64,000 nt of DNA from a virus. Its lineage: Duplodnaviria > Caudoviricetes. Within the stretch, counting starts at the first letter, position 1. Every line of letters starts with the position of its first letter. The position numbers and the translations under genes were made by a program. The DNA lies in IMG/VR virus record IMGVR_UViG_3300037780_000034, positions 128,001 to 192,000 of that record; one strand, 5' to 3'. The notes below the pieces were generated by a model. That model searched no databases, had not been told where the DNA came from, and saw nothing but the letters and a program-made list of their open reading frames with translations. Shown in pieces: positions 8,166 to 22,878 of the stretch.

Positions 8166-8811
8166 GGTATTCGTCTTAGGGAAAACCCGATAATAGACTG
8201 AAAACAGTGAAACGATGCTGGCGAATATGCCTGTAAGTTCTCTGTTAATGATTGATAATGAATGACTACTTTTGTGCAAACAACTGTTATGAAACATTAT
8301 CAAGAATTCTGTTTTCAAATACACAGATATACTAACAGAAGGCTATCCGGAAGTCATTATGCTAAGTTTCTGTGTATCTGAAAACAGATTAGGTCGTCAG
8401 TATAGACTCCATATGCAAGGCCGTTTAAGGGAATCAGGAGTGTCGGCAGCACAAACTTGTTTGTGACGGACTATTCCCTATTAGAATAAACTATGAAAGT
8501 AACTGAAATAGTATCATAGTCGCTCTATGATCTTGGTGCAAATCCAAGCATAGTGAAATCATAGTTTCCAACTTACTAACTTTACGCCTCCTTCAATAGT
8601 AAGTTGGGTTATTTTTCTGCCACTGTAAATGCAATACTTTACAGTGATGGGCTGGATAAAAGGTGAGCAGACATCTTCCAGCACTTTTCTTACAGAACAG
8701 GTGATCCTAGTGTGGAACGGTATATAAATCCCTATCTTATACCAAGGAAAAAAGATTTTAGGGAATCTGGTGCAAATCCTTTCATCACCTTTTCTGTAAG
8801 AAAAAGTTTAT

Positions 8812-8933
8812 TGCATCGTAGCTCAGAGGTAGAGCAGGTGACTGTGGATGCTAAAGGTCATAGGGTCAGTTCGATTCTGACAGCATCAACCGTAATCACT
8901 TGGTCGCAGGTTCGATCCCTGCCGATGCAGCCA
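8812..8933 (+). tRNA. tRNA-Asn(GTT) interrupted by a 47-nt tRNA-like insert (8846-8892)
   Basis: TGCATCG/CGATGCA acceptor, G73, CCA, intact D and T arms; removing the insert gives loop CT-GTT-AA. Confidence 0.8.
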
Positions 8934-9014
8934 ATATTTTGTGTAATTTATTGATACAGTTACACAACTTAAAACCCAATCAAATGCGCAGTTTTGGGTC
9001 TGCGCGATATTTAA

Positions 9015-9106
9015 GGAACATTGGCTGAGTGGTCTAAAGCATCGGTTTGCTAAACCGACGAAGGCAAATATGTCTTCCATTGGTTCGAATCCAATATGTT
9101 CCGCCA
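9015..9106 (+). tRNA. tRNA-Ser(GCT)
   Basis: full cloverleaf, long variable arm, G73, CCA. Confidence 0.95.
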
Positions 9107-9125
9107 ATAACGAATATGAAGAATA

Positions 9126-9202
9126 CAGGGTATGGGATAGTCTGGTTAATCTAACGCCCTTGGACGGCGTTGACGGTGGTTCAAATCCACCTACCCTGAC
9201 CA
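9126..9202 (+). tRNA. tRNA-Pro(TGG)
   Basis: CAGGGTA/TACCCTG acceptor; loop CT-TGG-AC. Confidence 0.95.
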
Positions 9203-9344
9203 TAAATTTCAGAGGGTTAAAACAGCGGATTATGTATGTTTCGTAAAATGAAAACAAAAGTAGTTTAAAATGTAAAGTTTATCTGTAGATAAACCTCTTG
9301 CATTTTTCTACAGAAACCGAAAAAGTCCCTCACTTTAATAACTT

Positions 9345-9420
9345 GCGGGTATAACTCAGTTGGTAGAGTATCTGACTTCCAATCAGAATGTCGTCGGTTC
9401 GAATCCGATTGCCCGCTCCA
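9345..9420 (+). tRNA. tRNA-Gly(TCC)
   Basis: canonical cloverleaf, U73, CCA. Confidence 0.95.
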
Positions 9421-9516
9421 AAATATGTCGGTTCCATTCAGTTGGTTTATTGAAGAACGATACTTCAATTTAGTCTAGTCGTTTAGACAATCGGCTCCAT
9501 TTTTAAACTTTTTTTT

Positions 9517-9646
9517 AGGATCATTTCCGCAATATTTTACTTTGCATCAGAAGCACGTGTTTGCAGGTTCAAGTCCTGCCTCCCCAACCATAATAATTGA
9601 CGGGGAGTAGGCAAATGGTAAAGCCGCGTTAAGTAATATGATCCTG
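9517..9646 (+). ncRNA. cassette 1 carrying a circularly permuted tRNA (CAG, Leu-like)
   Basis: AGGATCAT-TTCCGCAA ... ATGATCCT-G; 3' half 9544-9590 precedes 5' half 9601-9629. Confidence 0.85.
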
Positions 9647-9827
9647 TTATATACTACAGGCTAACTTTTGGGGGTTAGCTTGGTGTTACAGAAGTATAGG
9701 AAATCATTCGGAACCAAATAATGCCTATACCATTTTACGGTTCCAGCAAAACACAGTTGACAACCGATAGAGAATCAGCTACATTACAGACACTGAAAAT
9801 GAAACCACTAACAAAAGGTGAAACACT

Positions 9828-10280
9828 ATGAAGGGCATTGAAGCCAAATATACTGCTAAAGTAATTGCAAAAATGATCAAACATAATCGTTCAATTGAAC
9901 GCAAACATCAGCGTAAAAGTGAACGTGATTTCTTTGATGATGAAAGCTATGTTATTGCAAACTTTACACATAAAGAAGGAAAGAAACTTTCTTCACAATT
10001 TCGTGCATTTATGATCCATAATGCTTTTAAGAAAAATCGTGGATTTACAAGTGCAGAAGTTGCTTATTTTAACCTTGGTGAAAATTCACTGTCTACTATC
10101 AAAGAGAATAAAGAACTATATTCACGATATATGGATAGGTTTAAACGCCAGCAAAAAGCAATTAACATTGTTCGTCATAAACTTCTTGATCATAATGAAC
10201 GTGAAAGTTTTGAAAACTGGCTTAACACAAATGCAATGAATGAAACTTACTTTGACGAAAATTTCCTTCAACCTGCATAA
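9828..10280 (+). CDS. hypothetical protein
   Basis: RBS AAGGTG; promoter just upstream. Confidence 0.7.
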   Translation: MKGIEAKYTAKVIAKMIKHNRSIERKHQRKSERDFFDDESYVIANFTHKEGKKLSSQFRAFMIHNAFKKNRGFTSAEVAYFNLGENSLSTIKENKELYSRYMDRFKRQQKAINIVRHKLLDHNERESFENWLNTNAMNETYFDENFLQPA

Positions 10281-10543
10281 TACTGGTTGACACTGTTGAA
10301 AATCATTGATATAGTGTCAACAACAACAAAACGCTCTTTGACAATTTAACCATCTTCCCTATGCGAAAGCTATGATGGGATAAAAACAGACTTATTGTGT
10401 AAGATGAAGAATCTGTAAATCGCAATTGGTTGTCTGTTTTGAATATGATAGCACCACTTCCGAGTAATCAGATAATAACTGATTATTTCGAGTTAATTAA
10501 TAGTTTGAGCAAACGGATGCTATCATATTCAAAACAGATATAA

Positions 10544-10617
10544 GGCTCTATTGCATTGTGGAATGCAGCGGCTTCTAACCCCGTTTCAAGCAGGTTCGAC
10601 TCCTGTTAGGGCCACCA
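10544..10617 (+). tRNA. probable amber suppressor tRNA (CTA); alternative reading is a distorted Arg(TCT)
   Basis: canonical spacing puts TT-CTA-AC in the loop; C31.C39 mismatch. Confidence 0.65.
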
Positions 10618-10727
10618 AATAAAACCAAATGGAGAGAAAAATGTTCTAGATTTATATACCACCATAACTTCTATTGATTTAAAGTTTAAAGAAAGACCTT
10701 TACTCAAATATCAATAGGAGAAACAAA

Positions 10728-11108
10728 ATGAGTATTCAATTAAAAATTAAAAATAAACATCTTAGTGAAGAAGCACGAATCATACGTTTTGAAGAAAACA
10801 AAATCAAAAAACACGCTCGTAACGTAAGAGAACGTCAAGGGCACCAAACTGCCGATGATATAATGAAAACTTTTCAGTCACTTAGACATCATCGCAGATG
10901 GGACGTTCGTAACGAAAATCGTGCTACTTTTATTGCCAGAGCCTTCATAGAAGGAAAATCATATAAACAAGTTGAAACCAAACGTAATCCAGAGAATGAA
11001 TATACATTTATAGCGTTTGTGTTGCCAAGAGTGTTGACAATGGTAAACAAGTATGGCAATGTCCAGATAACAAAAGAAGAATTACTCAAATGGTGTAATC
11101 AAGAATAA
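10728..11108 (+). CDS. hypothetical basic protein
   Basis: RBS AGGAG. Confidence 0.7.
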   Translation: MSIQLKIKNKHLSEEARIIRFEENKIKKHARNVRERQGHQTADDIMKTFQSLRHHRRWDVRNENRATFIARAFIEGKSYKQVETKRNPENEYTFIAFVLPRVLTMVNKYGNVQITKEELLKWCNQE

Positions 11109-11115
11109 CTAAAAC

Positions 11116-11192
11116 GGAAGCATAGCATAATTGGTTAATGCCCACGTCTCATAAACGTGTTTATCTTGGTTCAAGTCCAAGTGCTTCCACCA
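11116..11192 (+). tRNA. tRNA(CAT), Met or Ile2
   Basis: canonical cloverleaf. Confidence 0.9.
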
Positions 11193-11337
11193 ATATGTTG
11201 AAACTTAATTGTCAGTCTGACGTTTCAATATTAATTAATTAATGACTGGCCAAAGGCTTGATGTGTTAAAAACCTTGTGGTGATGTAATCAAGATAAACC
11301 ACATAAACTCCTTTGTATGAAATGAAATTTCCTCTTT

Positions 11338-11395
11338 AGGATGATTACCGCAAAATTAATAAACTTTTTTTTGGTAAAAGCAGAACATCATCCTG
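11338..11395 (+). ncRNA. cassette 2 with a short hairpin cargo
   Basis: AGGATGAT-TACCGCAA ... ATCATCCT-G. Confidence 0.8.
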
Positions 11396-11407
11396 ATTGT
11401 GTATTGT

Positions 11408-11487
11408 GGGCGAGTGGGCAAATTGGTAAAGTCGGTTCACTCAAAATGAGAGTCATTTTGTCGGTTCGAGTCCGACCTCGCCTACCA
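11408..11487 (+). tRNA. tRNA-Leu(CAA)
   Basis: loop CT-CAA-AA; 8-nt variable region. Confidence 0.9.
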
Positions 11488-11572
11488 ATTTTATCTTATG
11501 AGTTAAGATTTGTTTTAATCATTGAAGTCCCTCTACGGGCACCAACAACTATAAACACTAAAATAGAATAAT

Positions 11573-11647
11573 GCGGACATCGTATAAGGTTATTACGCTT
11601 GGCGACCAGCTAAGAAATACAGGTTAGAATCCTGTTGTCCTGCTCCA
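11573..11647 (+). tRNA. atypical tRNA-Gly (ACC)
   Basis: Gly-type G1-C72, C2-G71, U73; bulged acceptor; loop CG-ACC-AG; T loop TTAGAAT. Confidence 0.65.
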
Positions 11648-11655
11648 AATAACTG

Positions 11656-11684
11656 TTGACACTCACCAGAGAATCAACTATAGT
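11656..11684 (+). promoter_or_regulatory. sigma70-type promoter
   Basis: TTGACA-17-TATAGT. Confidence 0.8.
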
Positions 11685-11708
11685 AACAGTGTAAGAACTA
11701 ATACTTGT

Positions 11709-11785
11709 GGGCCTGTAGCATAATTGGTTAATGCCCAGTGCTCATAACACTGTCAATCGCGGTTCAAGTCCGTGCGGGCCTACCA
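11709..11785 (+). tRNA. tRNA(CAT), Ile2 or Met
   Basis: canonical cloverleaf. Confidence 0.9.
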
Positions 11786-11805
11786 GTATTAGTTTTTGAT
11801 TTTTT

Positions 11806-11864
11806 AGGATGACTTCCGCAAAATTATGCATTTGACCGTTAATCAAAAAAGCAAAATCATCCTG
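11806..11864 (+). ncRNA. cassette 3 carrying an isolated Asn-type anticodon arm
   Basis: AGGATGAC-TTCCGCAA ... TTTGA-CC-GTT-AA-TCAAA ... ATCATCCT-G. Confidence 0.8.
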
Positions 11865-11873
11865 TAATAGAAT

Positions 11874-11967
11874 GGGCGCGTGGCGAAATTGGTTGAAACG
11901 CAAGGCACTTAAAATGCCTCACAGATTAGTGATCACACTGTGGGTTCGAGTCCCACCGCGCCTACCA
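11874..11967 (+). tRNA. tRNA-Leu(TAA)
   Basis: loop CT-TAA-AA; long variable arm. Confidence 0.9.
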
Positions 11968-12026
11968 AAATGTAGTAAACACAAAGAAATTTACTTCTAC
12001 TCATAAATAAGTAGAAGGAGAATTAA

Positions 12027-12467
12027 ATGAGTGATTACTTCAAAAATTATATGAACTTAACAAAAGAAAACAGACAAAGACACTTAGATATATCTTCACC
12101 TTGTGAAGAACGTGGTGGGAATAGCACAATATATAGAGGAGTCCTTGCTCAATATTTAAACACTCCTATCCCGATGGGTAGGATAGCAGTTCTGGCTCAC
12201 GCATGTAACAATAATAAATGTTCTAATCCACAGCATTTATATTGGGCGACAGACAGAGAGAATATAGTAGAAGATGGAAAAAAGTTTGGAACTTTTAAGA
12301 GTGTTTGGGAACGAATGGTAGACAAGCACGGTTATGAAGAAGCTTGTAGGCTACAAGCCAACGGTGCCCAATCAAAGGCAGGACAAGGAAACAAAGGTAA
12401 ACGAAAGTCTGAAGAACATAAGCGCAAAATATCCGAATCTTTAAAAATAAAAAATAGAAAAGAATAA
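12027..12467 (+). CDS. His-Me-finger (HNH-type) homing endonuclease with NUMOD3-like tail
   Basis: HACNNNKCSNPQHL; KRKSEEHKRKISESLK. Confidence 0.8.
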   Translation: MSDYFKNYMNLTKENRQRHLDISSPCEERGGNSTIYRGVLAQYLNTPIPMGRIAVLAHACNNNKCSNPQHLYWATDRENIVEDGKKFGTFKSVWERMVDKHGYEEACRLQANGAQSKAGQGNKGKRKSEEHKRKISESLKIKNRKE

Positions 12468-12538
12468 ATCTTCTAATAATATAAATAATTATAGAAATTT
12501 GCAACCATTATACAACTACCAAAAAGGATTAAAATGTT

Positions 12539-12662
12539 AGGATCATTACCGCAATTTTATTTGCATTTCCAGCCGTAGATGCAGGTGCAATTCCTGCTCA
12601 CCCTACCAATATAAATTATGGGGTGATCGTCTAATAGTAGGACAACGTATAATATGATCCTG
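12539..12662 (+). ncRNA. cassette 4 carrying a circularly permuted tRNA (TTC, Glu-like)
   Basis: AGGATCAT-TACCGCAA ... ATGATCCT-G; 3' half 12563-12608, 5' half 12620-12647. Confidence 0.85.
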
Positions 12663-12697
12663 TTCTTTAAAAAAAAGAAAGTTAATTTAAGTTTTTT

Positions 12698-12816
12698 AGA
12701 TTATGTTCAGCAAACCATATAAATTATATGAAAGCCTATCAACGTTGCCGGAAGGCCCGTATGGCAAACCCAGTTTTCGATTTTCTGGTTCTATAAAAAA
12801 GTAGACACATAATCTG
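12698..12816 (+). ncRNA. cassette 5 with a multi-hairpin cargo
   Basis: AGATTATG-TTCAGCAA ... CATAATCT-G. Confidence 0.8.
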
Positions 12817-12823
12817 TAATAAT

Positions 12824-12900
12824 TGCGGGGTAGACTGGAGAGGTACCCAGCACGGTCTCATAAGCCGATCACGGCGGTTCGAATCCGCCCCCCGCAACCA
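12824..12900 (+). tRNA. initiator-like tRNA-fMet(CAT)
   Basis: TGCGGGG/CCCCGCA-A-CCA; loop CT-CAT-AA. Confidence 0.85.
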
Positions 12901-13164
12901 TTTTTATAAAATGATAATTCCCTTTATTTTTACGAGTTTCCTTTCCGAGTAAAAATATCAAGGTTGAGTTATCATTTTATAAAAATGAGGATATAAATTA
13001 TGGATAAAGAAATACAAGATTTTATAGATTTTTGGAAAGAAAAAGATGTAAAATTACCAAATCCACAAAATTATCCAAAATCTTTTGAATGGTATGTTAC
13101 AATGTGGAAATATCACACAAAATAATATTATAAATACCTATGTAAGTTAACATAGGAGATAATA

Positions 13165-13809
13165 ATGTCATTAATAAGAATTCAACAAATACTAAAAGAT
13201 ATGAACCACGATCCAGGTCCAATTGATGGATTATGGGGAAGCAGAACAAAAGCTGCATTAGAAAGTTTAATACAATGGGAAGGAAAACCAGTAACGGTTA
13301 CTTCCAATTCATCTGATGATGATTTACCTTGGATGATAGAAGGAAAAAAAGTATTTGGGTTTCACGAAGTTAGAAATAATAGTGAATTAAGAAAATGGTT
13401 AAGAAGTGATGGTGCTACTCTTGGTGATCCAAAAGCACTTCCCTGGTGTGGTGATTTTACCGAGACTGCTATAAAAAACTCATTACCAACTGAACCTTTT
13501 ACTGGTAGAATGCTTGAAAATCCATATTGGGCAAGAAATTGGCTTGAATTTGGTCGTGCATCGCCTGCTATATATGGATGCATAGGCGTTTTTAGTAGAG
13601 GCACAGGAGGTCACGTTGGTTTCTTGGTAGGTGAAGATGCAACAGACTATTATGTTTTTGGTGGAAATCAAAGCGATAGTGTTAATATAGTAAGAATAGA
13701 TAAAAAACGTTTACTGGGAACAAGATGGCCATTGACTTACAATATTGTTAATACACCATTACCTAAAAGAGACCCAAAAACTGTAATCAAATCAGTTAAT
13801 GAAATATAA
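13165..13809 (+). CDS. endolysin-like: peptidoglycan-binding domain plus CHAP/NlpC-type domain (TIGR02594-like)
   Basis: PGPIDGLWGSRTKAAL; PWCGDF; GHVGF; GGNQSDSV. Confidence 0.8.
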   Translation: MSLIRIQQILKDMNHDPGPIDGLWGSRTKAALESLIQWEGKPVTVTSNSSDDDLPWMIEGKKVFGFHEVRNNSELRKWLRSDGATLGDPKALPWCGDFTETAIKNSLPTEPFTGRMLENPYWARNWLEFGRASPAIYGCIGVFSRGTGGHVGFLVGEDATDYYVFGGNQSDSVNIVRIDKKRLLGTRWPLTYNIVNTPLPKRDPKTVIKSVNEI

Positions 13810-13818
13810 GGAAAAGTT

Positions 13819-14055
13819 ATGAAAATAGTATTTGCCCAAGGTGCATTTGATGATTTTGATGGAACACAAGAAGAACTTGATAACCTTCTTTCGGAATTAA
13901 AAGAAATGATTGAAAGTGGTTCACTTATGGAAAAAAGTGAACCAGTGGATTTAGACTTATTGCAAGAAGAAAATCCAGAAATATATGAAAAAATTATGAA
14001 GTTTGATAGTTTAGATCAAGATACGTTTGAAAATACTAAAAATAAACTCCATTAA
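13819..14055 (+). CDS. hypothetical acidic protein
   Basis: RBS AAGGA. Confidence 0.65.
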   Translation: MKIVFAQGAFDDFDGTQEELDNLLSELKEMIESGSLMEKSEPVDLDLLQEENPEIYEKIMKFDSLDQDTFENTKNKLH

Positions 14056-14059
14056 TTTT

Positions 14060-14138
14060 GGCCCCATCGTCTACGCTGGTGTTAGGATACTCGGCTTTCA
14101 TCCGAGAGAAGTCGGTTCAATTCCGTCTGGGGCTACCA
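14060..14138 (+). tRNA. tRNA-Glu(TTC)
   Basis: loop CT-TTC-AT; G1-U72, A73. Confidence 0.9.
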
Positions 14139-14145
14139 AAATAAT

Positions 14146-14231
14146 GTGTCGGTGGGTGAGCGGTTTAAACCACCTGACTGTAAATCAGGCGCTGAAAAGC
14201 AACGCTAGTTCGAATCTAGCCCGACACACCA
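14146..14231 (+). tRNA. tRNA-Tyr(GTA)
   Basis: class II cloverleaf. Confidence 0.95.
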
Positions 14232-14273
14232 AATATTATGAGTGCAAAGTTACAAGCACTCAAAACAAATCTT

Positions 14274-14350
14274 GTGCGTGTGTAGCTGAATGGTTAAGCG
14301 CAGGATTGCAAATCCTGATTATGTTGGTTCGAGTCCAATCACGCACTCCA
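14274..14350 (+). tRNA. tRNA-Cys(GCA)
   Basis: GTGCGTG/CACGCAC acceptor, U73; 4-nt instead of 2-nt linker after the acceptor stem. Confidence 0.85.
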
Positions 14351-14389
14351 ATATAGTCTACTCTAATAAATAATAAAAAAGGTAAAAAA

Positions 14390-14560
14390 ATGGAAATATC
14401 TGATAGGATTGAATCTTTAAAAGCAAAACATCGTGAACTTGATAGTAGGATTGAAGTTCTGTATGCTGAAAGAGTAGACGAAAAGTATATAACTTCTCTA
14501 AAAAAAGAAAAGTTAAAGATAAAAGAAGAAATTACTAAGTTACAAAATAGCTTAGTATAA
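14390..14560 (+). CDS. small coiled-coil protein, YdcH/DUF465-like
   Basis: LKAKHRELDSRI...LKKEKLKIKEEI (56 aa, below the ORF-track cutoff). Confidence 0.7.
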   Translation: MEISDRIESLKAKHRELDSRIEVLYAERVDEKYITSLKKEKLKIKEEITKLQNSLV

Positions 14561-14568
14561 AATAATTT

Positions 14569-14653
14569 AGGAATATTTCAGCAAATTTATCTTGGATAAA
14601 ACATTGTTCTCAAAAACAAAGTGAAGTGGTTCAAATCCACATCAATATTCCTG
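14569..14653 (+). ncRNA. cassette 6 enclosing D-, anticodon- and T-like arms without an acceptor end
   Basis: AGGAATAT-TTCAGCAA ... GTGG-TTCAAAT-CCAC ... ATATTCCT-G. Confidence 0.8.
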
Positions 14654-14663
14654 ACTAATATCT

Positions 14664-14774
14664 TGGAACATTACCGCAACTATAACATAAACAATGGGTT
14701 ACAGGTTCAAATCCTGTCTTTTACAGTTTGTAAAAGTAGTTCAATGGTAGAACAATTGTCAAAAAATGTTCCAG
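14664..14774 (+). ncRNA. cassette 7 carrying a permuted tRNA-like RNA with a closed acceptor stem and no CCA
   Basis: TGGAACAT-TACCGCAA ... T arm, CTTTTACA-GTT-TGTAAAAG, D arm ... ATGTTCCA-G. Confidence 0.85.
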
Positions 14775-14782
14775 TATTTTAT

Positions 14783-14856
14783 GGGGGATTAGTTCAATGG
14801 TAGAACAGGTGCTTTACGCGCATCATACAGCAGTTCGATTCTGTTATCCCCTACCA
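14783..14856 (+). tRNA. tRNA-Val(TAC)
   Basis: loop TT-TAC-GC; CCA. Confidence 0.9.
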
Positions 14857-14871
14857 ATATTAGGAAAAAAT

Positions 14872-15309
14872 ATGAATAATAAATGGGATTTAAGATTTTT
14901 AGAATTAGCAAAACATATTGCAGAATGGTCAAAAGACCCAAGCACAAAAGTTGGGTGTGTAATAGTAAGACCAGATAAAACTATTGCGTCTGTTGGTTAC
15001 AATGGATTTCCACGTGGTGTTAATGATGAACCAGAAAGATATAATAATCGTGAGATAAAATATCTTATGGTAAAACACGCAGAAGAGAATGCAGTATACA
15101 GTTCAAAAGAATCATTGACTGGATATACGGCGTATGTTACACACTATCCGTGTTCTAGTTGCACAGGAACACTAATACAAAATGGAATAAAAAGAATTGT
15201 AACACAAAAACCAGATGATAGTTTTGCTTCAAGGTTTCGTGATAGTTTTGAATCATCAAAAATAATGATTAATGAAACTGGTATAGAATTAGTTTTAATA
15301 GAAGATTAA
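14872..15309 (+). CDS. dCMP deaminase
   Basis: SKDPSTKVGC, HAEENA, PCSSC. Confidence 0.9.
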   Translation: MNNKWDLRFLELAKHIAEWSKDPSTKVGCVIVRPDKTIASVGYNGFPRGVNDEPERYNNREIKYLMVKHAEENAVYSSKESLTGYTAYVTHYPCSSCTGTLIQNGIKRIVTQKPDDSFASRFRDSFESSKIMINETGIELVLIED

Positions 15310-15311
15310 AT

Positions 15312-15396
15312 GGGCTAGTGTTGAAATAGGTAGACAATGCGCACTTAGAATGCGTTGCCGAAAGGCGTGGGGGTTCAAGTCCCTCCTAGCCTACCA
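15312..15396 (+). tRNA. tRNA-Leu(TAG)
   Basis: class II cloverleaf. Confidence 0.95.
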
Positions 15397-15414
15397 TTAT
15401 TGAAAGGATACAAA

Positions 15415-15588
15415 ATGAAAAACAAAATAAAAACACCTAAACCACGAAATGAATATGCAATTTCTGCAAGGTTTAGAACAGGTGCTGGTCCTATGCAAAA
15501 ATCTAAGAAAGCACAGAGACAACAAGATAAAATTGCTTTAAAGAAAAAAGGTAAAGACTACTTTAACAATAGAGAAACTATTCTTTAA
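15415..15588 (+). CDS. small basic hypothetical protein
   Basis: RBS AAGGA; KPRNEYA..GAGPM. Confidence 0.6.
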   Translation: MKNKIKTPKPRNEYAISARFRTGAGPMQKSKKAQRQQDKIALKKKGKDYFNNRETIL

Positions 15589-15735
15589 GTAGTCTTGTTT
15601 TATAATATATGAAAGGATATAATATGTTTACATTAATAGTAGGAATAGTAATTGGTGCTTTCATTGGTTGGAATTTTCCACAACCAGAGTTTGCTAGAAA
15701 TATTCAAAATAAGATAAAAAATATTCTAAAATAAT

Positions 15736-16509
15736 GCCACGGTAGCTCAGTCCGGTAGAGCATACAGGTTTGTAAAATAGTAAATATCTAAAAAGGATAT
15801 TTACTATGATTAGAAATAAAATAGAATGTAAAAAATGTGAAAGATTGATAAGTTTATCAAATCATAAAAGACATACACAATCCTGTAATGGCAAAAAAGT
15901 ATCTTCAAACAAAACTATTGAAGAAAATCATATTGATTGGAAAACAATACAAGAAGATTATGACAATGGATTAACATACCGTGGAATAACAGAAAAATAC
16001 AAAATATGTCAACAATCAATATCAAATGCGAGAAAAAAAGGTCTGTTAAAAACACGTTCTAAATCAGAAGCCTCTAAACTTTATTATAAAAATAATACAC
16101 CAAACATAATGAGCGATGAGGCCAGAAAAAGAATTTCTGAAAAAATGTCCGAACATAATCACGGCGGAAGAAGTAAATGGTTTGAGATAGATGGGAAGAA
16201 AGTCCAAGGAACTTGGGAGCTTAACTTTGCCAAATTTTGCAAAGAGAACAACATAGAATGGCAAAGATGCAAACCTTGGAAATATAAAATGGATAAAAAA
16301 ATAAGAAGCTATACACCAGACTTTTATATTCCAAGCAAAAAATTATTTATAGAAATAAAAGGTCATTGGTGGGGAGATGATAGAAGAAAAATGAACTGTG
16401 TAATAGAACAACATCCTGATAAAAACATTCTTATAATAGAAAAAGAGATATACGAACAGATGCTAGATGGAAAATTAGAATGGTGATTCGAATTCACATC
16501 GTGGCACCA
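15736..16509 (+). pseudogene. tRNA-Thr(TGT) split by an endonuclease gene (pieces 15736-15775 and 16482-16509)
   Basis: GCCACGG pairs with TCGTGGC-A-CCA about 700 nt downstream; positions 39-48 are missing. Confidence 0.75.
15806..16486 (+). CDS. PD-(D/E)XK-type putative homing endonuclease
   Basis: YTPDFYI...FIEIKG; N-terminal Zn finger and HTH-like segment. Confidence 0.75.
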   Translation: MIRNKIECKKCERLISLSNHKRHTQSCNGKKVSSNKTIEENHIDWKTIQEDYDNGLTYRGITEKYKICQQSISNARKKGLLKTRSKSEASKLYYKNNTPNIMSDEARKRISEKMSEHNHGGRSKWFEIDGKKVQGTWELNFAKFCKENNIEWQRCKPWKYKMDKKIRSYTPDFYIPSKKLFIEIKGHWWGDDRRKMNCVIEQHPDKNILIIEKEIYEQMLDGKLEW

Positions 16510-16615
16510 TAGTTTTATGATACACTGTCCGCAACAGGTCTTGATGGGGTAGCTTACGAGCAAGCCAAAGTGTAGGTGTAAGTCCTACCGCAGTGTATCA
16601 TAAAAATATAAATAT

Positions 16616-16692
16616 TGTTCTGTAGCACAATTGGTTTAGTGCAGGCGACTGATAATCGTCAGATTCAAGTTCAAATCTTGACAGAACAACCA
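16616..16692 (+). tRNA. tRNA-Ile(GAT)
   Basis: loop CT-GAT-AA. Confidence 0.9.
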
Positions 16693-16701
16693 ACAAATTT
16701 A

Positions 16702-16777
16702 TGGTAGAAGGGAAATTGGCGACCGACCGCACTTTGAATGCGTGTTATTGTAAGTTCGAATCTTACTCTACCAACCA
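16702..16777 (+). tRNA. tRNA-Gln(TTG)
   Basis: U1-A72; loop CT-TTG-AA; weak D arm. Confidence 0.8.
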
Positions 16778-16799
16778 ATATAAAGTAAAAATGAAATAC

Positions 16800-16884
16800 G
16801 GACAAGTGCCCGAGAGGACAAAGGGAACTGACTTTTAATCAGTCGCTATATGCTACGTGGGTTCGAATCCCACCTTGTTCACCA
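16800..16884 (+). tRNA. tRNA-Lys(TTT) with a class II body
   Basis: loop CT-TTT-AA; 13-nt variable region; 3-bp D stem. Confidence 0.85.
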
Positions 16885-16962
16885 AAATATGGTCGAATCA
16901 GATTGACATATACAGTCAACTATGCTATTGTATAGTATATTCAATGAAAGAAAGATATTACT

Positions 16963-17409
16963 ATGAAAATTGAATACCGTCAAGGCGATCTATTTAAAAC
17001 AGAGATTAAAACAATTGTTCACGGATGCAATGCGCAAGGTGTTATGGGGTCTGGGGTTGCGAATATAATTCGTGAACAATATCCAGAAGCATATGAGCGT
17101 TATCGTAATGAGTATGAAAAACATAATTATCTAAAGCTTGGTGATATCATATCAGTTCCTTGTAATTACAAGTTTATTGTAAACGCTATTACACAAGAGT
17201 ATTTTGGGCGTGACAATAAACGATATGTTAGCTATGATGCAGTAGATGACGTTATGGTAAAGTTAAATAAATTTTACGATATATACGGTATTTCAGAAAT
17301 TGCTATGCCAAAAATTGGTGCTGGTTTAGGAAATGGTTCTTGGGAAGTGATAGAAGCAATCATAGAGAATCGTCTTGACACCGTGAAACCAGTAGTGTAT
17401 ACTATGTGA
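16963..17409 (+). CDS. macro domain (ADP-ribose binding/hydrolase) protein
   Basis: GDLF, IVHGCNAQGVMGSGVA, MPKIGAGLGNG. Confidence 0.9.
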   Translation: MKIEYRQGDLFKTEIKTIVHGCNAQGVMGSGVANIIREQYPEAYERYRNEYEKHNYLKLGDIISVPCNYKFIVNAITQEYFGRDNKRYVSYDAVDDVMVKLNKFYDIYGISEIAMPKIGAGLGNGSWEVIEAIIENRLDTVKPVVYTM

Positions 17410-17420
17410 TATGAAATAAT

Positions 17421-17497
17421 CTCCACGTAGCTCAACTGGACAGAGCGAGTGACTTCTAATCACTAGGTTGAGGGTTCGATTCCTTCCGTGGAGGCCA
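17421..17497 (+). tRNA. tRNA-Arg(TCT)
   Basis: canonical cloverleaf. Confidence 0.95.
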
Positions 17498-17561
17498 TTT
17501 CTTATACTACCTTATACCCTACTAACAGGTATAAATACCTATGAACTAGGAGAATACTATA

Positions 17562-17957
17562 ATGAGCATTTCAAACCAAAAAGGTGATATAGGGGAAGCA
17601 CATTTTGTTTTAAGGGCTACTGAAAAGGGATATTGGACTGGAAAAATGCCACAAGACTGCCCTTATGATTTTGTATTGGATAGAGGAAAAGGATTAGAGC
17701 GTGTTCAGGTAAAATACAGGTCTAGTGCAAAAAAAGGTTCAATACAAATTAATTCCTTTAATTCAAGTCCGCAATCAAATAGAACATATAACGGTTTCGT
17801 TGATCAATTTGCAGTATATAACCCAGAAACATCAGAAGTATATCTTATTCCAGCTAATTTAGTAATGGAATCTGGTGCTTCTATTTTTAGAGTAGAATAT
17901 CCTAAAAATAATCAACTAAAAGGTGTAACTTTTCTTTCTGAATTCAAAGAATGGTAG
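17562..17957 (+). CDS. PD-(D/E)XK endonuclease (group I intron-associated type)
   Basis: KGDIGE, YDFVLD, RVQVKY. Confidence 0.8.
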   Translation: MSISNQKGDIGEAHFVLRATEKGYWTGKMPQDCPYDFVLDRGKGLERVQVKYRSSAKKGSIQINSFNSSPQSNRTYNGFVDQFAVYNPETSEVYLIPANLVMESGASIFRVEYPKNNQLKGVTFLSEFKEW

Positions 17958-18096
17958 TTCGAATCTTACTTGCAGCACCAATAAAAATATTGTATTGAAC
18001 CCCACTATTCATATGCTGAGTGTTTTAGACCTGACACTGTGAAGCGAATATGCGTTCAATACCTGCTAGGGGAATTGGTCCCTCCTAGTCAGTTTT

Positions 18097-18170
18097 GGCC
18101 CCTTGGTATATGGATATTACGCTCGGCTGTCTACCGGGAAAAACGGGTTTGAGTCCCGTAGGGGTCGCCA
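18097..18170 (+). tRNA. tRNA-Asp(GTC)
   Basis: loop CT-GTC-TA; G73. Confidence 0.9.
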
Positions 18171-18577
18171 ATATAGACTGTGACGTAATCGGCCCTTGTG
18201 AGGAACGCTCCCGTAACCAGTCGGGTTAAAGTTGCAAACAACCCAGTCTATAAAATAAAGTCCTATGTCCGACTTACCGATTTTGGTATTTTGGCTTAGG
18301 CACCAGTTTGATCTAGATACTTTTATTTTTGGAGCAAGAGTAGTCGTGTGTGATGATAAAAATGAAAGTCGTTTCAATGCTAGACAACATTCGGTTCAAG
18401 GACGTGCGAACCAGTATTATGACACCTGCACGTTGACCCTGAAACCAGTGTGCAGCATTATACGATGGGTAACAGTCTGGAGAGTGACAGACATATATGC
18501 GAAAAGGGTTTTTAGTAGTATGTGGTAATTCTTAAACCCTGAAATATCCATTAAGATCGTCGGTAGGCCACATATTT

Positions 18578-18652
18578 GGGGGATTGGTGAAATCAGGATC
18601 ACGTAGGTGTTGCATACCTAAATTATCGGGGCAGGTCCGATATCCTCCACCA
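18578..18652 (+). tRNA. tRNA-Ala(TGC) with a non-canonical T loop
   Basis: G3.U70, A73; loop GT-TGC-AT; T loop GGCAGGT. Confidence 0.8.
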
Positions 18653-18812
18653 TATAAATAAAGGATATGTTATGATTGGTTTAATATTTTTATCATTTAG
18701 TCCATTGTTTTTGATAGCATCAAATGACTATTTTGGTAAAATTTCTTCTATAATTTGTGCTGTTATTGGCATAACCATAATAACTATATCTCTGTTAATG
18801 TAAGGAATAAAA

Positions 18813-19142
18813 ATGTCATATGAAAAACCACTTCCTAAACCATTATATCCGCCAGTTGACCAAGGTTCACTAAAAGCTTTTGAATATTACAAAGAATTTA
18901 TAGAATATCTTGGAGCAAAGCCGGTAAATCATACTGAAATAGAAAATGGTGATACCACAAGTTTAGAACATTTGTTATGGATGTGTAATCATTGTATACC
19001 AAGAATTCGTGATGATGGATTAGGATTTAATGTTTCTAAGTATTCACGATGGTTAGGATACATACAAGGTTGTTTAATTTGTAAAGGTTACACAAGTGTA
19101 GCACAAGAAAGAGACAGAACAAGAAACTTTTTTAATGAATAA
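18813..19142 (+). CDS. hypothetical protein
   Basis: RBS AAGGA. Confidence 0.65.
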   Translation: MSYEKPLPKPLYPPVDQGSLKAFEYYKEFIEYLGAKPVNHTEIENGDTTSLEHLLWMCNHCIPRIRDDGLGFNVSKYSRWLGYIQGCLICKGYTSVAQERDRTRNFFNE

Positions 19143-19148
19143 TCTTTT

Positions 19149-19368
19149 TGGATCAGTTCAGCAAACAATATTTCCGTGAAAAGGACCGTGACGGTGGTGC
19201 AAATCCGCCCTTCCCCGCCACAGATACACTATGACAACATAGACGGGTTAATCGCCGTAGGAACGAAGCAGTTTCCAAACCAACGATAGGAAGAGTTTGT
19301 CGTCTTCTGTAGTGTATCTTTGACGGGGAAGTAGCTCAGTTAGTAGAGCAGGTAAAAAGTTGATCCAG
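19149..19368 (+). ncRNA. cassette 8 carrying a circularly permuted tRNA-Phe(GAA)
   Basis: TGGATCAG-TTCAGCAA ... TTGATCCA-G; 3' half 19174-19220, 5' half 19325-19353. Confidence 0.85.
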
Positions 19369-19656
19369 TTAATATAATAAAGAATCGTCTAGCCATCTTA
19401 TTACAGCGTGATCCAAAACAAGTTTAGCATCTTCAACTGATATATTAAACCATTCTCCACTTATTCTTTTGTAAGATATCTCACTATGTATTTTACTTTC
19501 CATAATTCTTGTTTTTTCATCTGGAATTTCAACATAATAATGAAGATAAAGTTTATCTGGATTTCCAGTTTGTAGGTTCTTTAGCCTACGATGTGGGTCT
19601 TTTGCAAACCCAATCTTTTGACGATTTTCATTGTTACCTATAATATAAATATACAT
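19369..19656 (-). CDS. small GIY-YIG nuclease (T5orf172-like)
   Basis: YIYII...KIGFAKDPHRRLKNLQTGNP...GEWF. Confidence 0.85.
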   Translation of the reverse strand: MYIYIIGNNENRQKIGFAKDPHRRLKNLQTGNPDKLYLHYYVEIPDEKTRIMESKIHSEISYKRISGEWFNISVEDAKLVLDHAVIRWLDDSLLY

Positions 19657-19858
19657 ATAACTATTTATGGAGATTAAAAAATGGACTCACCGTTTAAAAC
19701 ACAATTTGACTTACCGCGTGCTGGATTAATTAGACAAGAATTAATTACATATGAAGATCGTGGTGGGGTAATATTTAAAATCACTACTATAAGAAATTTT
19801 CATAACGGCGACTATATAGATTCACAAACTATTGTCCCTATCGTAGAAAAATAACATT

Positions 19859-19944
19859 GCTGAAGTCCCATAGCGGCGATTGGAAAGGTTTTGTAATCCT
19901 TCGGTTAACACCCATCGTGAGTTCGAGTCTCACCTTCAGCACCA
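19859..19944 (+). tRNA. tRNA-Thr(TGT) with a class II body
   Basis: AAGGT/TCCTT stem, loop TT-TGT-AA; 15-nt variable region. Confidence 0.8.
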
Positions 19945-19967
19945 ATATACAATACAAAAATTATTTT

Positions 19968-20044
19968 CCCGACTTAGTGTTTAGCGGTTAGCACGGATGA
20001 TTGTGGATCATCAAGGCCAGATTCGAATTCTGGGGTCGGGACCA
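19968..20044 (+). tRNA. tRNA-His(GTG) lacking G-1, with A73
   Basis: CCCGACT/GGTCGGG-A-CCA, preceded by T. Confidence 0.9.
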
Positions 20045-20052
20045 AATATTAC

Positions 20053-20144
20053 GGAAGTATGGCAGAGTCTGGTTTATTGCATCTGCTTTGAACGCAGAAG
20101 AACGTGAAAGCGTTCCGTGGGTTCGAATCCTACTGCTTCCGCCA
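20053..20144 (+). tRNA. tRNA-Ser(TGA)
   Basis: class II cloverleaf. Confidence 0.95.
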
Positions 20145-20152
20145 AAATTTAT

Positions 20153-20241
20153 AGGGGTGCGCCAACGTTGGAGTGTTGGGCTGGTCTCCAAAACCAGTGT
20201 TTGAAAAAACTTAGTGAGTTCGAATCTCATCACCTTTGCCA
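20153..20241 (+). tRNA. tRNA-Trp(CCA) with a long variable arm
   Basis: loop CT-CCA-AA; G73; 16-nt variable region. Confidence 0.85.
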
Positions 20242-20261
20242 ATATAAAACTCAGGAAAATT

Positions 20262-20486
20262 ATGAAACAAAGATTACCATATGCAACAAGAAATCTTAAA
20301 AACTTTATAACCGCAGTATATCCACTTCTATTAGATGATAGATATATTGATATGACTGAAAGTCAATTTGTTAGTGAAGTTATGAAAAATAGTGGAGGAT
20401 CACTAAATCCAAAAACTATAATCTCAGTATATAATTCACTTATGAGTGATGCAGGGTTGGAGCCATTATATGAAAATCATAAATAA
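20262..20486 (+). CDS. hypothetical protein
   Basis: RBS AGGA. Confidence 0.55.
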   Translation: MKQRLPYATRNLKNFITAVYPLLLDDRYIDMTESQFVSEVMKNSGGSLNPKTIISVYNSLMSDAGLEPLYENHK

Positions 20487-20587
20487 TAAAAGATGGAAAA
20501 TACAATCTAAACAACAATTTGGCAATAAGATAACTTATATAATCAAATGTGTAGAATTTCCATCTGATATAAGAAGGATTTCTATTA

Positions 20588-20845
20588 ATGGATGGGAAAA
20601 ATACCCAGATGCCGACAGTTGACCAATTAGCAGAAATTGCTATGGAAAGTGAAATTACTGATCCAATAGATTGGGGAATGTTAGTTGTATCTGAAAAACA
20701 CGCATACAAAATGATGGCTTCATATGTGTTGGAAATGGCAGAAACACAAAAAAATAACAAACATTTTGATACTATATTGATGGCAACTATAACCAAGTTG
20801 CTTGTTGAAAATTTTGTATTAAATTTAAAAGTTAATAATAAATAA
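20588..20845 (+). CDS. hypothetical phage protein
   Basis: IDWGML motif recalled from jumbo phages. Confidence 0.65.
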   Translation: MDGKNTQMPTVDQLAEIAMESEITDPIDWGMLVVSEKHAYKMMASYVLEMAETQKNNKHFDTILMATITKLLVENFVLNLKVNNK

Positions 20846-20864
20846 TCTCTAAGGAGATTATAAT

Positions 20865-21143
20865 ATGAAATTAAAAGATTTTGCTATAATAAAAACCAGT
20901 TTTTCAGATGCAGATTTTTGGTTAGTCAGGCGTGGAAGTATTGATATGGTTGGAAAACCTGTTAAAAATTATGATCCAGAATACATCGGTGTTAAAGTAA
21001 CTAGTGATAAAATACTTCCAAATTTTTTATTTTATTGGTTTATGAATTTTCATAATACAGGATATTGGAAAACTGTTGCAACTGGAGCAACAAACCTTGT
21101 TAATATAAAAACAGAAGATGTTAAAAATATACCAGTAGGATAA
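20865..21143 (+). CDS. small protein resembling a type I R-M specificity (TRD) fragment
   Basis: ILPNFLFYWF...ATGATNLVNIKTEDVKNIPV. Confidence 0.5.
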   Translation: MKLKDFAIIKTSFSDADFWLVRRGSIDMVGKPVKNYDPEYIGVKVTSDKILPNFLFYWFMNFHNTGYWKTVATGATNLVNIKTEDVKNIPVG

Positions 21144-21148
21144 TTATA

Positions 21149-21574
21149 ATGAAAGAGTTAGATTTACTATATGATAGTGTAAGAATAAAATTAGGTCAAA
21201 AACAGAGAGACCCAGATTTAGATGATTTTATGGAAGAATACTATGAAATTACAAGTCCTCATCCTTTTGATAATGTAACACGTATTTTGGGTAATACTGC
21301 TGTTCATATTTCTCCTACAAGTGATAATGAAATTCATATTCACGATATACTGTCTTTGCTACCAAGAAGTGGTGCAGGAACAGATGCAATGAAAGAATTA
21401 ATTAACTTAAGTGATAAGTATGGAATTCCTCTTTCTGGGTTTGCAAAAGCATATCATAAAGATAAAAAATTTATAACTGATACTGATAAATTGTTAAACT
21501 GGTATAAAAAACTAGGATTTACTGTTGTAAACAAACACGAAGATGGTTATGAAATAAGGTATAGCAAATATTAA
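21149..21574 (+). CDS. GNAT-fold protein
   Basis: PRSGAGTDAMKEL; LLNWYKKLGF. Confidence 0.7.
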   Translation: MKELDLLYDSVRIKLGQKQRDPDLDDFMEEYYEITSPHPFDNVTRILGNTAVHISPTSDNEIHIHDILSLLPRSGAGTDAMKELINLSDKYGIPLSGFAKAYHKDKKFITDTDKLLNWYKKLGFTVVNKHEDGYEIRYSKY

Positions 21575-21607
21575 TTATTTCACTCACGTATCCCCCTTGA
21601 TTACGAA

Positions 21608-22276
21608 TCAAGACAAAGGTAACTGGATGGAAATATAAATTTGTGATATTTCTAATTCAATTATTTTTTTTTGTTCTTCTAATTTTTTAATTTTTTTATT
21701 TATATTATCCAACTTTTTTTCTAATAATAATTTTTCTTTTTTTTTATTTTCGTTTATCTTTTTATCATATGATTTCCAAGAAACAATTCTTTTTTTAATA
21801 TATCCATTTTCAAGGTATGTTTCAATTTCTTCTGGTTTTACCTTGCAGCAGTGGCGTTCTTTTATATTGCTCATCCAAATTGTCCCATATTGACTATTGC
21901 CTTTTCCTGTTTGCGATTCGGACATTATGATACCTATATTTTTTCTTGCTCTTTCATATAGTCTTGTATTGACATATCTTTTTTGTGAGGATGATGAAGA
22001 ATACATACAAGTGAATGCTCTTACAACCTTTTTCCATCCATAACTTCCTTCATTAAGCATTTTGCAAAGCAAGTAATGACATAAAAAATGTTCACGAGCA
22101 GTGAGAAGAACAAGATTATTATTTTCGTCGGAGCCTCCGAGAGATTTTGGAATTATATGATGATTTTCGTAATAAACGTATGATTTATGCGTTGACCTTC
22201 TTTTTATTCTTCCGTTGATTTTTGCATTTTGTATTATTTTATAATATAATTTTGTATACTTATTAGTTAAAAACAT
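21608..22276 (-). CDS. HNH homing endonuclease (Mob-like)
   Basis: ENHHIIPKSLGGSD...LTAREHFLCHYLL; start MFLTNKY after RBS GAGGT. Confidence 0.85.
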   Translation of the reverse strand: MFLTNKYTKLYYKIIQNAKINGRIKRRSTHKSYVYYENHHIIPKSLGGSDENNNLVLLTAREHFLCHYLLCKMLNEGSYGWKKVVRAFTCMYSSSSSQKRYVNTRLYERARKNIGIIMSESQTGKGNSQYGTIWMSNIKERHCCKVKPEEIETYLENGYIKKRIVSWKSYDKKINENKKKEKLLLEKKLDNINKKIKKLEEQKKIIELEISQIYISIQLPLS

Positions 22277-22384
22277 ATTTACGAACCTCTTTTTTATTTT
22301 ATTTATAAAATTTATGGGTTCGCAGAATCCTTGAACACTATTGAATAGTTTGGTAATTTGGATGACGATAGAGGAACCAATAAA

Positions 22385-22476
22385 GGTCATATGACAGAGT
22401 GGTTGATTGTGCCTGATTGGAAATCAGGTGAACGTATAATAGCGTTCCATAGGTTCGAATCCTATTGTGACCGCCA
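22385..22476 (+). tRNA. tRNA-Ser(GGA)
   Basis: class II cloverleaf, G73. Confidence 0.95.
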
Positions 22477-22479
22477 TTA

Positions 22480-22878
22480 TTAGAATATTTGCTTTTCTAT
22501 TTTAAGTGATATTATTTTTTCGTTTGGAACATATCTCCAATAGTATTTTCCACAGTCTTTTGTTATTCCAAATACAGTATACGTAATTCCTATTTTTACT
22601 ATTATTGCGTCTTCTCCATCTAATAAAACTTTATCACCTTCTCGGAAGGTTCCTGACATTTTAAACATAGCCCCTTTTGCTATTTTGGTTAAAAAGTCTT
22701 TTATCCAAAGAGTAATTAAAAAAGAAAACAACACCAATATTATTGGAGTCATTATTTCAGAAATTGTCATTGATATATCACCTATTGAAATCATCGTAAT
22801 ATTACTCCATTTATAAATATTATTTAATATAACTAACAAAAATATAATATATGGAGAGATTTTTATGTCAAATGACAA
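22480..22878 (-). CDS. MscS-like small membrane protein (true start may be downstream)
   Basis: TM helix then FREGDKVLLDGEDAIIVKIGITYT. Confidence 0.6.
   Translation of the reverse strand: MSFDIKISPYIIFLLVILNNIYKWSNITMISIGDISMTISEIMTPIILVLFSFLITLWIKDFLTKIAKGAMFKMSGTFREGDKVLLDGEDAIIVKIGITYTVFGITKDCGKYYWRYVPNEKIISLKIEKQIF

Follow-up and report, generated by a model that had tools for sequence, protein, structure and literature searches.

A rotated tRNA-Glu-like RNA in a phage tRNA island is probably a YrlA-like tRNA mimic that docks on a Ro60-like protein

The stretch of DNA analysed here (the window, 64,000 nucleotides (nt) at its full length) covers bases 128,001-192,000 of a 317,722-bp virus record that is 85% complete, and DNA runs place it in pond metagenomes. 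Window positions 9,000-22,500 form a transfer RNA (tRNA) island, in which ARAGORN finds 22 tRNAs, all on the + strand and all with an encoded CCA, and to which an Rfam search adds a few more. Among these genes, at 12539-12662 of the + strand, lies an element that holds the two halves of a tRNA-Glu with the 3' half first. It is the fourth of eight cassettes in the island that share the same ends, and we call it cassette 4. A preliminary description, made from the sequence by itself, had read it as a permuted tRNA-Glu-derived element, part of a repeated cassette with a constant entry point between tRNA positions 29 and 30, and this much has held; the splice site that it proposed there is not supported. 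We argue instead, with a probability of roughly 0.6, that cassette 4 is a YrlA-like tRNA mimic that docks, through a handle made of its two ends, on a Ro60-like protein encoded elsewhere in the genome.

The two ends of the element pair in an 8-bp stem, after which comes the bulge UACCGCAA. The 5' strand of the stem, AGGATCAT (12539-12546), pairs with 12654-12661 and covaries among cassettes and homologues. Next to it stands the conserved handle motif TACCGCAA (12547-12554; family consensus UW-CMGCAA), the proposed docking site of the Ro60-like protein, and then the A/U-rich linker TTTTATTT (12555-12562), which leads to tRNA position 30 and differs in length and sequence among homologues. The 3' half of the tRNA begins with an anticodon-type hairpin (12563-12573; positions 30-40, GC, loop ATTTCCA with UUC, GC), continues with positions 41-43 (CGT, pairing with ACG at 12645-12647) and the variable loop AGAT (together 12574-12580), and passes through the T arm GCAGG-TGCAATT-CCTGC (12581-12597), where G55 replaces U55, to the acceptor 3' strand TCACCCT, the discriminator A and an encoded CCA (12598-12608). 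An AU-rich spacer of 11 nt (12609-12619) closes the acceptor stem in the primary transcript. The 5' half follows (12620-12647): GGGGTGA, TC, the Glu-type D arm GTCT-AATAGTA-GGAC, A26 and ACG at positions 27-29. The A/U-rich 3' linker TATAAT (12648-12653), of which TATAA is kept in homologues with a CMGCAA handle, leads to the 3' strand of the handle stem, ATGATCCT, with its conserved closing G (12654-12662). The gene order is thus positions 30-76 with ACCA (12563-12608), spacer, positions 1-29 (12620-12647).

When 12647 is joined to 12563, with AGGACAACG running into GCATTTCC, the stem ACGGC/GCCGT is restored, and ARAGORN recognises the resulting 74-mer as tRNA-Glu(ttc) with G1-U72, A73 and a Glu-type D arm. 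The minimum-energy structure of this 74-mer alone is a perfect cloverleaf. On re-reading, the coordinates and letters first given for the two halves and the spacer are all correct, as are the restored stem, G1-U72 and A73. The joined sequence itself was not found in the genome DNA. A scan of both strands of the 317.7 kb for the rotated order of T arm, 7-bp acceptor stem and D arm gave only three G+C-containing matches, all of them within cassettes. The break was also said to fall always after position 29 in cassettes 1, 4 and 8. It does so unambiguously in cassette 4; in cassettes 1 and 8 the break has a T on either side, each of which could be counted as position 29, and this leaves 28/29 or 29/30.

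Is this anatomy maintained? Contigs from three DNA runs show no informative variation: a contig of run X2 is identical across cassette 4 and run X3 barely covers it. Blastn of cassettes 4 and 5 against cultured phages gave no match. Homologues in different phage DNA were reached through a pattern that joins the Glu-type D arm to the 3' linker (L032, L041, L042 and L043, from IMG/VR and metagenome contigs), and a search for relatives of cassette 8 led to a 283-kb contig (L048) that carries, next to each other, the closest homologue of cassette 4 and that of cassette 8. Blastn with the L041 homologue as query found a related module in a cultured phage, Phosso, to which we return. In the alignment of six homologues 96.8% of the cells pair. 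Seven pairs are compensatory, of which the acceptor stem has four, the T stem two and the D stem one; in slid controls there are 0-1 such pairs, and 38-52% of the cells pair. With the handle included, the pairing among four homologues is 97.3%, with two more compensatory pairs. The encoded CCA is invariant (6/6), as is the GC/GC mini-stem of the anticodon-type hairpin (6/6), and the 29/30 entry point is constant in all homologues. The pair 27-43 is kept in 2/6 and the other two pairs of positions 41-43 are invariant. The discriminator reads A, G, A, G, T, A across the six, and the spacer varies between 5 and 11 nt. The homologue of L032 and one of those of L041 (L041a) differ at 11 places, all of them in linker, loop, discriminator or spacer.

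The letters before position 30 had been described as always TTT. They are so in the three window cassettes with a rotated tRNA, but the homologues taken together show TTT, TAT, ATT, ATA, TTA and ATC, and since these letters vary TTT is not a signal. ARAGORN reads the joined homologues as Glu(ttc), Asp(gtc) twice, Gly(tcc) and Glu(ctc), all on a Glu-type body, and in L048 the anticodon is GUC by inspection. A32, U33, C36 and A38 are retained in the loop and U35 mostly so, with position 34, the wobble position, free; an NUC loop is present in 5/6. Related modules have acceptor stems sealed by loops of 4-5 nt, without CCA. One of them, directly 3' of the cassette 4 homologue of L041 (L041:7331-7447), is a second rotated tRNA-like handle RNA with an anticodon-type hairpin (UCC) and an acceptor stem sealed by a TATA loop, again lacking the CCA.

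The elbow of the tRNA body carries a further oddity. The 24 ordinary tRNAs of the genome all have U55 and a GG D loop (24/24), and none of them has G55 with A18, or C37 (0/24), so that C37 and G55 are as atypical as they had been taken to be. Cassettes 4 and 8 and their L048 homologues (L048:1460-1590) have G55 and lack G18; the G55-type T loops stand at 12586-12592 and 19198-19204, and the D loops at 12633-12639 and 19338-19345. More distant relatives of either module show the canonical U55 and GG pair. The partners of the 18-55 contact have thus changed together in two modules of one phage lineage, which argues for an L shape that is maintained, with a hint of a pressure specific to this lineage.

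The ends of cassette 4 recur around other contents. A script that requires WCMGCAA after the first strand of an 8-bp stem, and the second strand no more than 320 nt further on, returns eight cassettes from 9517 to 19367, all on the + strand and within 10 kb. On shuffled genomes it returns 3-14 matches over both strands of the whole 318 kb. Two further matches in the genome (genome 21246-21335 and 302024-302175) have neither the W-G start nor the closing G and were treated as chance. The stem letters differ between the eight cassettes and the pairing is preserved; the second pair is G-C and a G follows the 3' strand in all of them. The cassettes lie between tRNAs, often 8-13 nt upstream of one, and usually have a T run upstream. 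Their cargo is of several kinds. Cassettes 1, 4 and 8 contain a rotated full tRNA, and the others a sealed tRNA-like domain, a lone T-arm hairpin or a short cargo without a tRNA body. Since the cargo differs among cassettes, the constant part is the handle and not the tRNA.

Cassette 1 (9517-9645) encloses a rotated Leu(CAG)-like tRNA with CCA, whose joined halves ARAGORN reads as tRNA-Leu(cag), and cassette 8 (19149-19367) a rotated Phe(GAA)-like tRNA with CCA and a structured spacer of 104 nt, read when joined as tRNA-Phe(gaa). Cassettes 2 (11338-11394) and 3 (11806-11863) have a handle with a short cargo, without a tRNA body in cassette 2; cassette 3 has homologues in L014 and L032. Cassette 5 (12698-12815) is a handle RNA directly 3' of cassette 4, and this side-by-side arrangement is conserved in L032. 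Cassette 6 (14569-14652) holds a lone T-arm-like hairpin. Cassette 7 (14664-14773) contains a YrlA-like tRNA domain with a closed acceptor stem, without CCA and without an anticodon loop. All are on the + strand. Beyond this genome, a scan of IMG/VR with TTAGGATSAYTWCCGCAA gave 15 matches, about the number expected by chance, of which three (in L004, L014 and L015) were confirmed as real handle RNAs. Relatives reached through a neighbouring HNH-like open reading frame (ORF) or a peptidoglycan-binding ORF have tRNA arrays and no handles. Several other identities for the element were considered and dropped, namely kink-turn, integron attC site, transposon inverted repeats, small self-cleaving ribozymes and a CRISPR-repeat mimic: each was at odds either with the motifs or with a stem that changes its letters and covaries.

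What, then, might the handle serve? Outside the window, at genome 85,209-86,636, a gene encodes a protein of 475 aa with a DUF2828/DUF7788 (vWA) assignment and a DxSxS metal-site motif; it belongs to phrog_850, labelled "RNA-binding protein". Tblastn finds homologues in 710 cultured phage records, some of them annotated "Ro-like RNA binding protein". A PDB search by sequence gave no match, and the link to Ro60 came from a fold search only. The AlphaFold model has a predicted local distance difference test score of 85 and a predicted template modelling score of 0.86, and the 13 best PDB matches to it are Ro60 structures, among them that of Thermus phage phiLo and 1yvr (E 1e-8, template modelling score 0.63).

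In nine other records (L015, L004, L014, GuuelaD, PVA23, Sf13, L049, L052 and L056) a DUF2828/DUF7788 gene has handle RNAs on its own strand, no more than about 1.5 kb away. The IMG/VR contig L015, which has no tRNA, carries six of them directly upstream of the gene, the first beginning 8 nt after a promoter TTGACA-N17-TATACT. In mycobacteriophage GuuelaD three stand in tandem directly 3' of the Ro60-like gene, and in Vibrio phage PVA23 and Shigella phage Sf13 they lie inside a tRNA array downstream of it. Two complete phage records without a Ro60-like gene have no handles in the tRNA-containing stretches examined. The sample is small (about 15 records), yet every case goes in the same direction and points to a handle that travels with Ro60-like genes. 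The Ro60-like gene of our phage has a mini-handle in its own 5' leader (genome 85,155-85,189): GAATGAT, AACAGCAA, 12 nt and ATCATTC, forming a 7-bp stem, directly 3' of a sigma-70-like promoter TTGACA-N17-TAATAT. Its position suggests that the protein may regulate its own mRNA. In Citrobacter phage Ci1, just 3' of the Ro60-like gene (L022:7890-8128), there are two tRNA-like RNAs in normal order, with a CCA or a Glu-type D arm, in which a long insert with CAGCAA or TTCAGCA replaces the anticodon region. One of them is annotated as a tRNA pseudogene. They may be an unrotated version of the same idea.

The cultured Sinorhizobium phage Phosso carries the same Glu-like module (79% identical, with the 29/30 entry, ACCA and a CUC loop) on another handle. 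This handle reads GCAGGC-CGAUGG on the 5' side and ACACUUG-GCCUGC on the 3' side, and on both strands (GCCGAUG / ACACUUG) it fits the published YrlA and Y RNA motifs. The module has its own promoter and terminator, and is followed by a second RNA of the same build that also has both. These RNA genes (L044:1400-1900, PV764938 about 24.1-24.6 kb) are unannotated. Phosso encodes a Ro60 that Pfam TROVE recognises with 115 bits, from a gene 266 kb away from the RNA genes; no homologue of the DUF2828 type was found in this phage. Since Phosso pairs a YrlA-type handle with a TROVE Ro60, the cargo is shared between the two phages while the handle matches the type of Ro60 that is present. Such a match across the swap is a prediction of Y-RNA architecture, and not one of a splice signal.

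These observations are best discussed against what is known of Y RNAs. In these the two ends form a stem, Ro60 contacts a conserved motif next to the 5' strand, and the remainder is a variable effector part, which in YrlA is a tRNA-like domain with the rotated order of T arm, acceptor and D arm (PMC4201824). In Mycobacterium smegmatis the YrlA has a 7-bp acceptor stem, is cut in vivo by RNase P and has a CCA tail; the two pieces were shown experimentally to stay base-paired (PMC4201824). From the anatomy, covariation, fold and gene neighbourhoods described above we infer that cassette 4 works in a comparable manner. The handle, i.e. the end stem with its bulge, would dock on the ring of the Ro60-like protein, and the L-shaped body derived from tRNA-Glu would be presented to some partner that recognises tRNAs. 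The gene order of 3' half, ACCA, spacer and 5' half follows because the handle enters the body through the anticodon stem, between positions 29 and 30. By analogy with M. smegmatis, RNase P probably cuts before G1 (12620) and exonucleases probably trim the spacer back to the CCA. This would leave two fragments, about 70 and 43 nt long, which the stems of handle, acceptor and anticodon would keep together, so that no ligation at 29/30 would be needed.

Several observations weigh against this explanation. The handle of cassette 4 carries CMGCAA where YrlA has GNCGAA (the site of Rsr, GNCGAAN0-1G). Pfam TROVE matches neither the Ro60-like protein nor anything else in the genome, and the candidate partner belongs, unlike that of YrlA, to a DUF2828/DUF7788 branch that this model does not see. 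The Rfam model of YrlA (RF02553, gathering threshold 69 bits) gives no match on cassette 4; over its full length it scores 31.5 bits, below threshold, on cassette 7, and it scores 21.4 bits on cassette 1. YrlA genes accompany a gene for a Ro60-type protein and would be expected on the strand of the Ro60 orthologue, no more than about 4 kb from it; cassette 4 is 51 kb from the Ro60-like gene, though the leader mini-handle and the handles of the nine other records adjoin theirs. Unlike the YrlA RNAs described so far, cassette 4 keeps an anticodon-type hairpin and a genomically encoded CCA, which hints at a role for these parts that the Y-RNA model does not explain. Lastly, energy folding by itself does not favour the 2-bp anticodon hairpin in the unligated form (-29.5 versus -34.9 kcal/mol).

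The most obvious alternative is that cassette 4 is a true permuted tRNA gene. The handle would be cut off after position 29 and before position 30, the ends would be joined, for example by a nick-sealing RNA ligase of the phage, and RNase P and 3' trimming would open the acceptor end to yield a contiguous, decoding tRNA-Glu(UUC). The perfect cloverleaf with CCA and the constancy of the entry point would follow naturally, and cassettes 1 and 8 would supply tRNAs for Leu(CAG) and Phe(GAA), for which ARAGORN finds no ordinary tRNA elsewhere in the genome. The phage does encode an RNA ligase of 364 aa with an N-terminal OB domain (PHA02142) and PF09414 (genome 36,658-37,752; L016:1465-2559, minus strand). 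Ligases of this type seal nicks in duplex RNA, and no other RNA-joining enzyme was found in the record. Yet neither a tRNA splicing endonuclease (PF01974) nor RtcB (PF01139) was found in the record, 85% complete as it is. The 29/30 break had been interpreted, with the TTT, as a defined splice site; its flanks are a handle that also encloses cargo unrelated to tRNA and accompanies Ro60-like genes. The same Glu-type body carries UUC, CUC, GUC or UCC, the related modules with sealed acceptor stems have no CCA to offer, G55/A18 and C37 are foreign to the ordinary tRNAs of the genome, and an intact tRNA-Glu(UUC) is already present at 14060. The splice site is thus not supported, and we regard a decoding tRNA from this locus as very unlikely. 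Less likely still is a decaying, rearranged tRNA pseudogene: C37, G55 and a D loop without GG are unusual for a tRNA, but every helix persists across the six homologues, with compensatory changes and a CCA that never varies, and the joint change of G55 and A18 in two modules, in cassettes 4 and 8 and in L048, speaks for a maintained tertiary contact.

The handle might also have nothing to do with the Ro60-like protein and act as punctuation of a polycistronic tRNA transcript (an RNase site, a stabiliser or an insulator), the rotated tRNA having arisen incidentally as tRNA genes recombined with such elements. The location of the cassettes between tRNAs, so often just upstream of one, after T runs and always on the tRNA strand, is what one would expect of such a signal, and no sigma-70-like promoter was found directly upstream of cassette 4 on the + strand. 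But handles also occur beside Ro60-like genes directly after promoters and with no tRNA nearby, as in L015 and in the leader of our own Ro60-like gene, and they were absent from the tRNA stretches examined in the two phages that lack such a gene. The cargo is moreover conserved with compensatory changes and sits in Phosso on a different handle, between its own promoter and terminator. Hence, we think such punctuation distinctly improbable. A non-decoding, decoy-like role had been allowed for from the start. The RNA, alone or on the Ro60-like protein, would show a Glu/Asp-like anticodon loop and a CCA to a host defence enzyme that targets tRNAs, or to one that modifies or charges them, so that real tRNAs are protected or damage to them is sensed. 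The loop geometry set by A32, U33, C36 and A38 persists while position 34 changes between otherwise identical homologues, and short cassettes, here and elsewhere, hold little beyond a hairpin. In the Felix O1-like phage Bas63 the Ro60-like protein gp130, whose gene borders a tRNA array, acts against the Ppl defence system (PMC11482910), and two reports tie bacterial Ro60/Y RNA operons to nicked tRNAs and RNA repair (PMC7790460, PMC10159003). The changes at position 34 could be neutral drift, however, and the closest homologue of cassette 8 has not kept the anticodon loop (it has a loop of 9 nt). We give it a small chance as it stands, and it is compatible and overlaps with the tRNA mimic docked on a Ro60-like protein. 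One might speculate further that phage Ro60-type particles carry whole, CCA-ended tRNA bodies, with loops that vary rapidly at the wobble base (here an NUC loop of Glu/Asp type), as baits or sensors for host enzymes that cut, modify or charge particular tRNAs. Cassette 4 would then be a two-piece tRNA decoy, tethered to a protein, in a conflict of phage and host over tRNAs, and the module would have moved between two Ro60 lineages; this combination is attractive and, in our opinion, rather unlikely.

Other genes of the island, and those at its border, deserve mention. An amber-reading tRNA with anticodon CTA, labelled Pyl by ARAGORN, lies in the array at 10544-10617. At 8812-8930 Rfam matches a tRNA (54.5 bits) that ARAGORN missed, whose anticodon loop is extended by an insert of about 47 nt, and this insert in turn holds a T-arm-like hairpin. 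Within the 400 nt upstream of it there are two hairpin-like GGTGCAAATCC motifs (8535-8550 and 8770-8785), with the G55-type loop of cassettes 4 and 8. The 5' part of another tRNA (15735-15775) is parted from its matching T arm, acceptor strand and CCA (about 16478-16510) by an ORF (15806-16486) with a phage endonuclease I-like domain, the final codons of which overlap the T arm. An orphan T-arm/acceptor/CCA end (17958-17982) stands directly 3' of a second ORF, 17562-17957, a PD-(D/E)XK endonuclease; both ORFs end in Glu-Trp-stop. The island also encodes a macro-domain protein (16963-17409) and a deoxycytidylate (dCMP) deaminase (14797-15309).

Y RNAs that mimic tRNAs are known. Among the RNAs found here cassette 4 is the most tRNA-like version, with a full Glu-type body, an anticodon-type loop and an invariant CCA. 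The presence of this module on two handles that match two Ro60-type proteins suggests a modular picture, with the handle for docking on the protein and the tRNA module as the working part. Phosso provides a cultured system for the study of this module, and Felix O1-like phages have the CMGCAA handle beside the Ro60-like gene reported to counter defence. For annotation, the consequence is that such cassettes should be counted neither as tRNA genes nor as tRNA pseudogenes.

Permuted tRNA genes have reportedly been found in the red alga Cyanidioschyzon merolae and the archaeon Thermofilum pendens. In these algal and archaeal genes the flanks form a bulge-helix-bulge, the site of cleavage by the splicing endonuclease, and ligation acts on a circular intermediate. 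Cassette 4 resembles them in having the 3' half first, on the same strand, and in giving a canonical cloverleaf when joined. It differs from them in that, on inspection, no 4-bp helix between 3-nt bulges can be drawn in its flanks. Permuted ssrA genes give a two-piece transfer-messenger RNA (tmRNA), from which the spacer is removed and whose two pieces remain base-paired. Like the two-piece tmRNA (RF04321), cassette 4 has in a single transcript a T arm, the 3' strand of the acceptor with ACCA, an AU-rich spacer and the 5' strand of the acceptor; unlike it, cassette 4 has neither a tag reading frame nor pseudoknots, and the model gives a local match of 14.1 bits (threshold 47), confined to the T arm, ACCA, spacer and acceptor.

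The Ro60 of phage phiLo binds two Y-like RNAs (Yrl1 and Yrl2) with a terminal stem and a CGAA bulge (PMC12135203), and the authors of the Bas63 study guessed that some of its "tRNAs" are Y RNAs (PMC11482910). Our phage shares with both a phage-encoded protein of Ro60 fold, and with phiLo the build of terminal stem and bulge motif; the phiLo RNAs use CGAA and have no reported tRNA-like module, and no RNA partner has been identified in Bas63. The handle by itself comes closest to the Class I RNAs of dictyostelids (RF01414), described as having a short terminal stem with covariation, a motif of 11 nt and conserved letters at both ends (PMC7919456). There too a stem is followed by CUUACAGCAA (an ACAGCAA-type motif), the other strand and CUG, around a variable interior, and the terminal letters, AG at the start and CUG(U) at the end, are conserved. 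Unlike our handle RNAs, Class I RNAs are eukaryotic, 42-65 nt long, and reported with neither a tRNA-like cargo nor a link to Ro60; their model scores 21.2 bits on cassette 5 (gathering threshold 41.5) and does not match cassette 4. As in YrlA, the ends of cassette 4 pair in a stem with a motif by its 5' strand, the interior has the rotated order of T arm, acceptor and D arm, and, as in M. smegmatis, there is a 7-bp acceptor stem and a CCA end. Against this background, and as far as we can tell, a conserved, full Glu/Asp-type tRNA module with an invariant CCA, its presence on two types of handle that match the types of Ro60, and the paired change at positions 18 and 55 are new.

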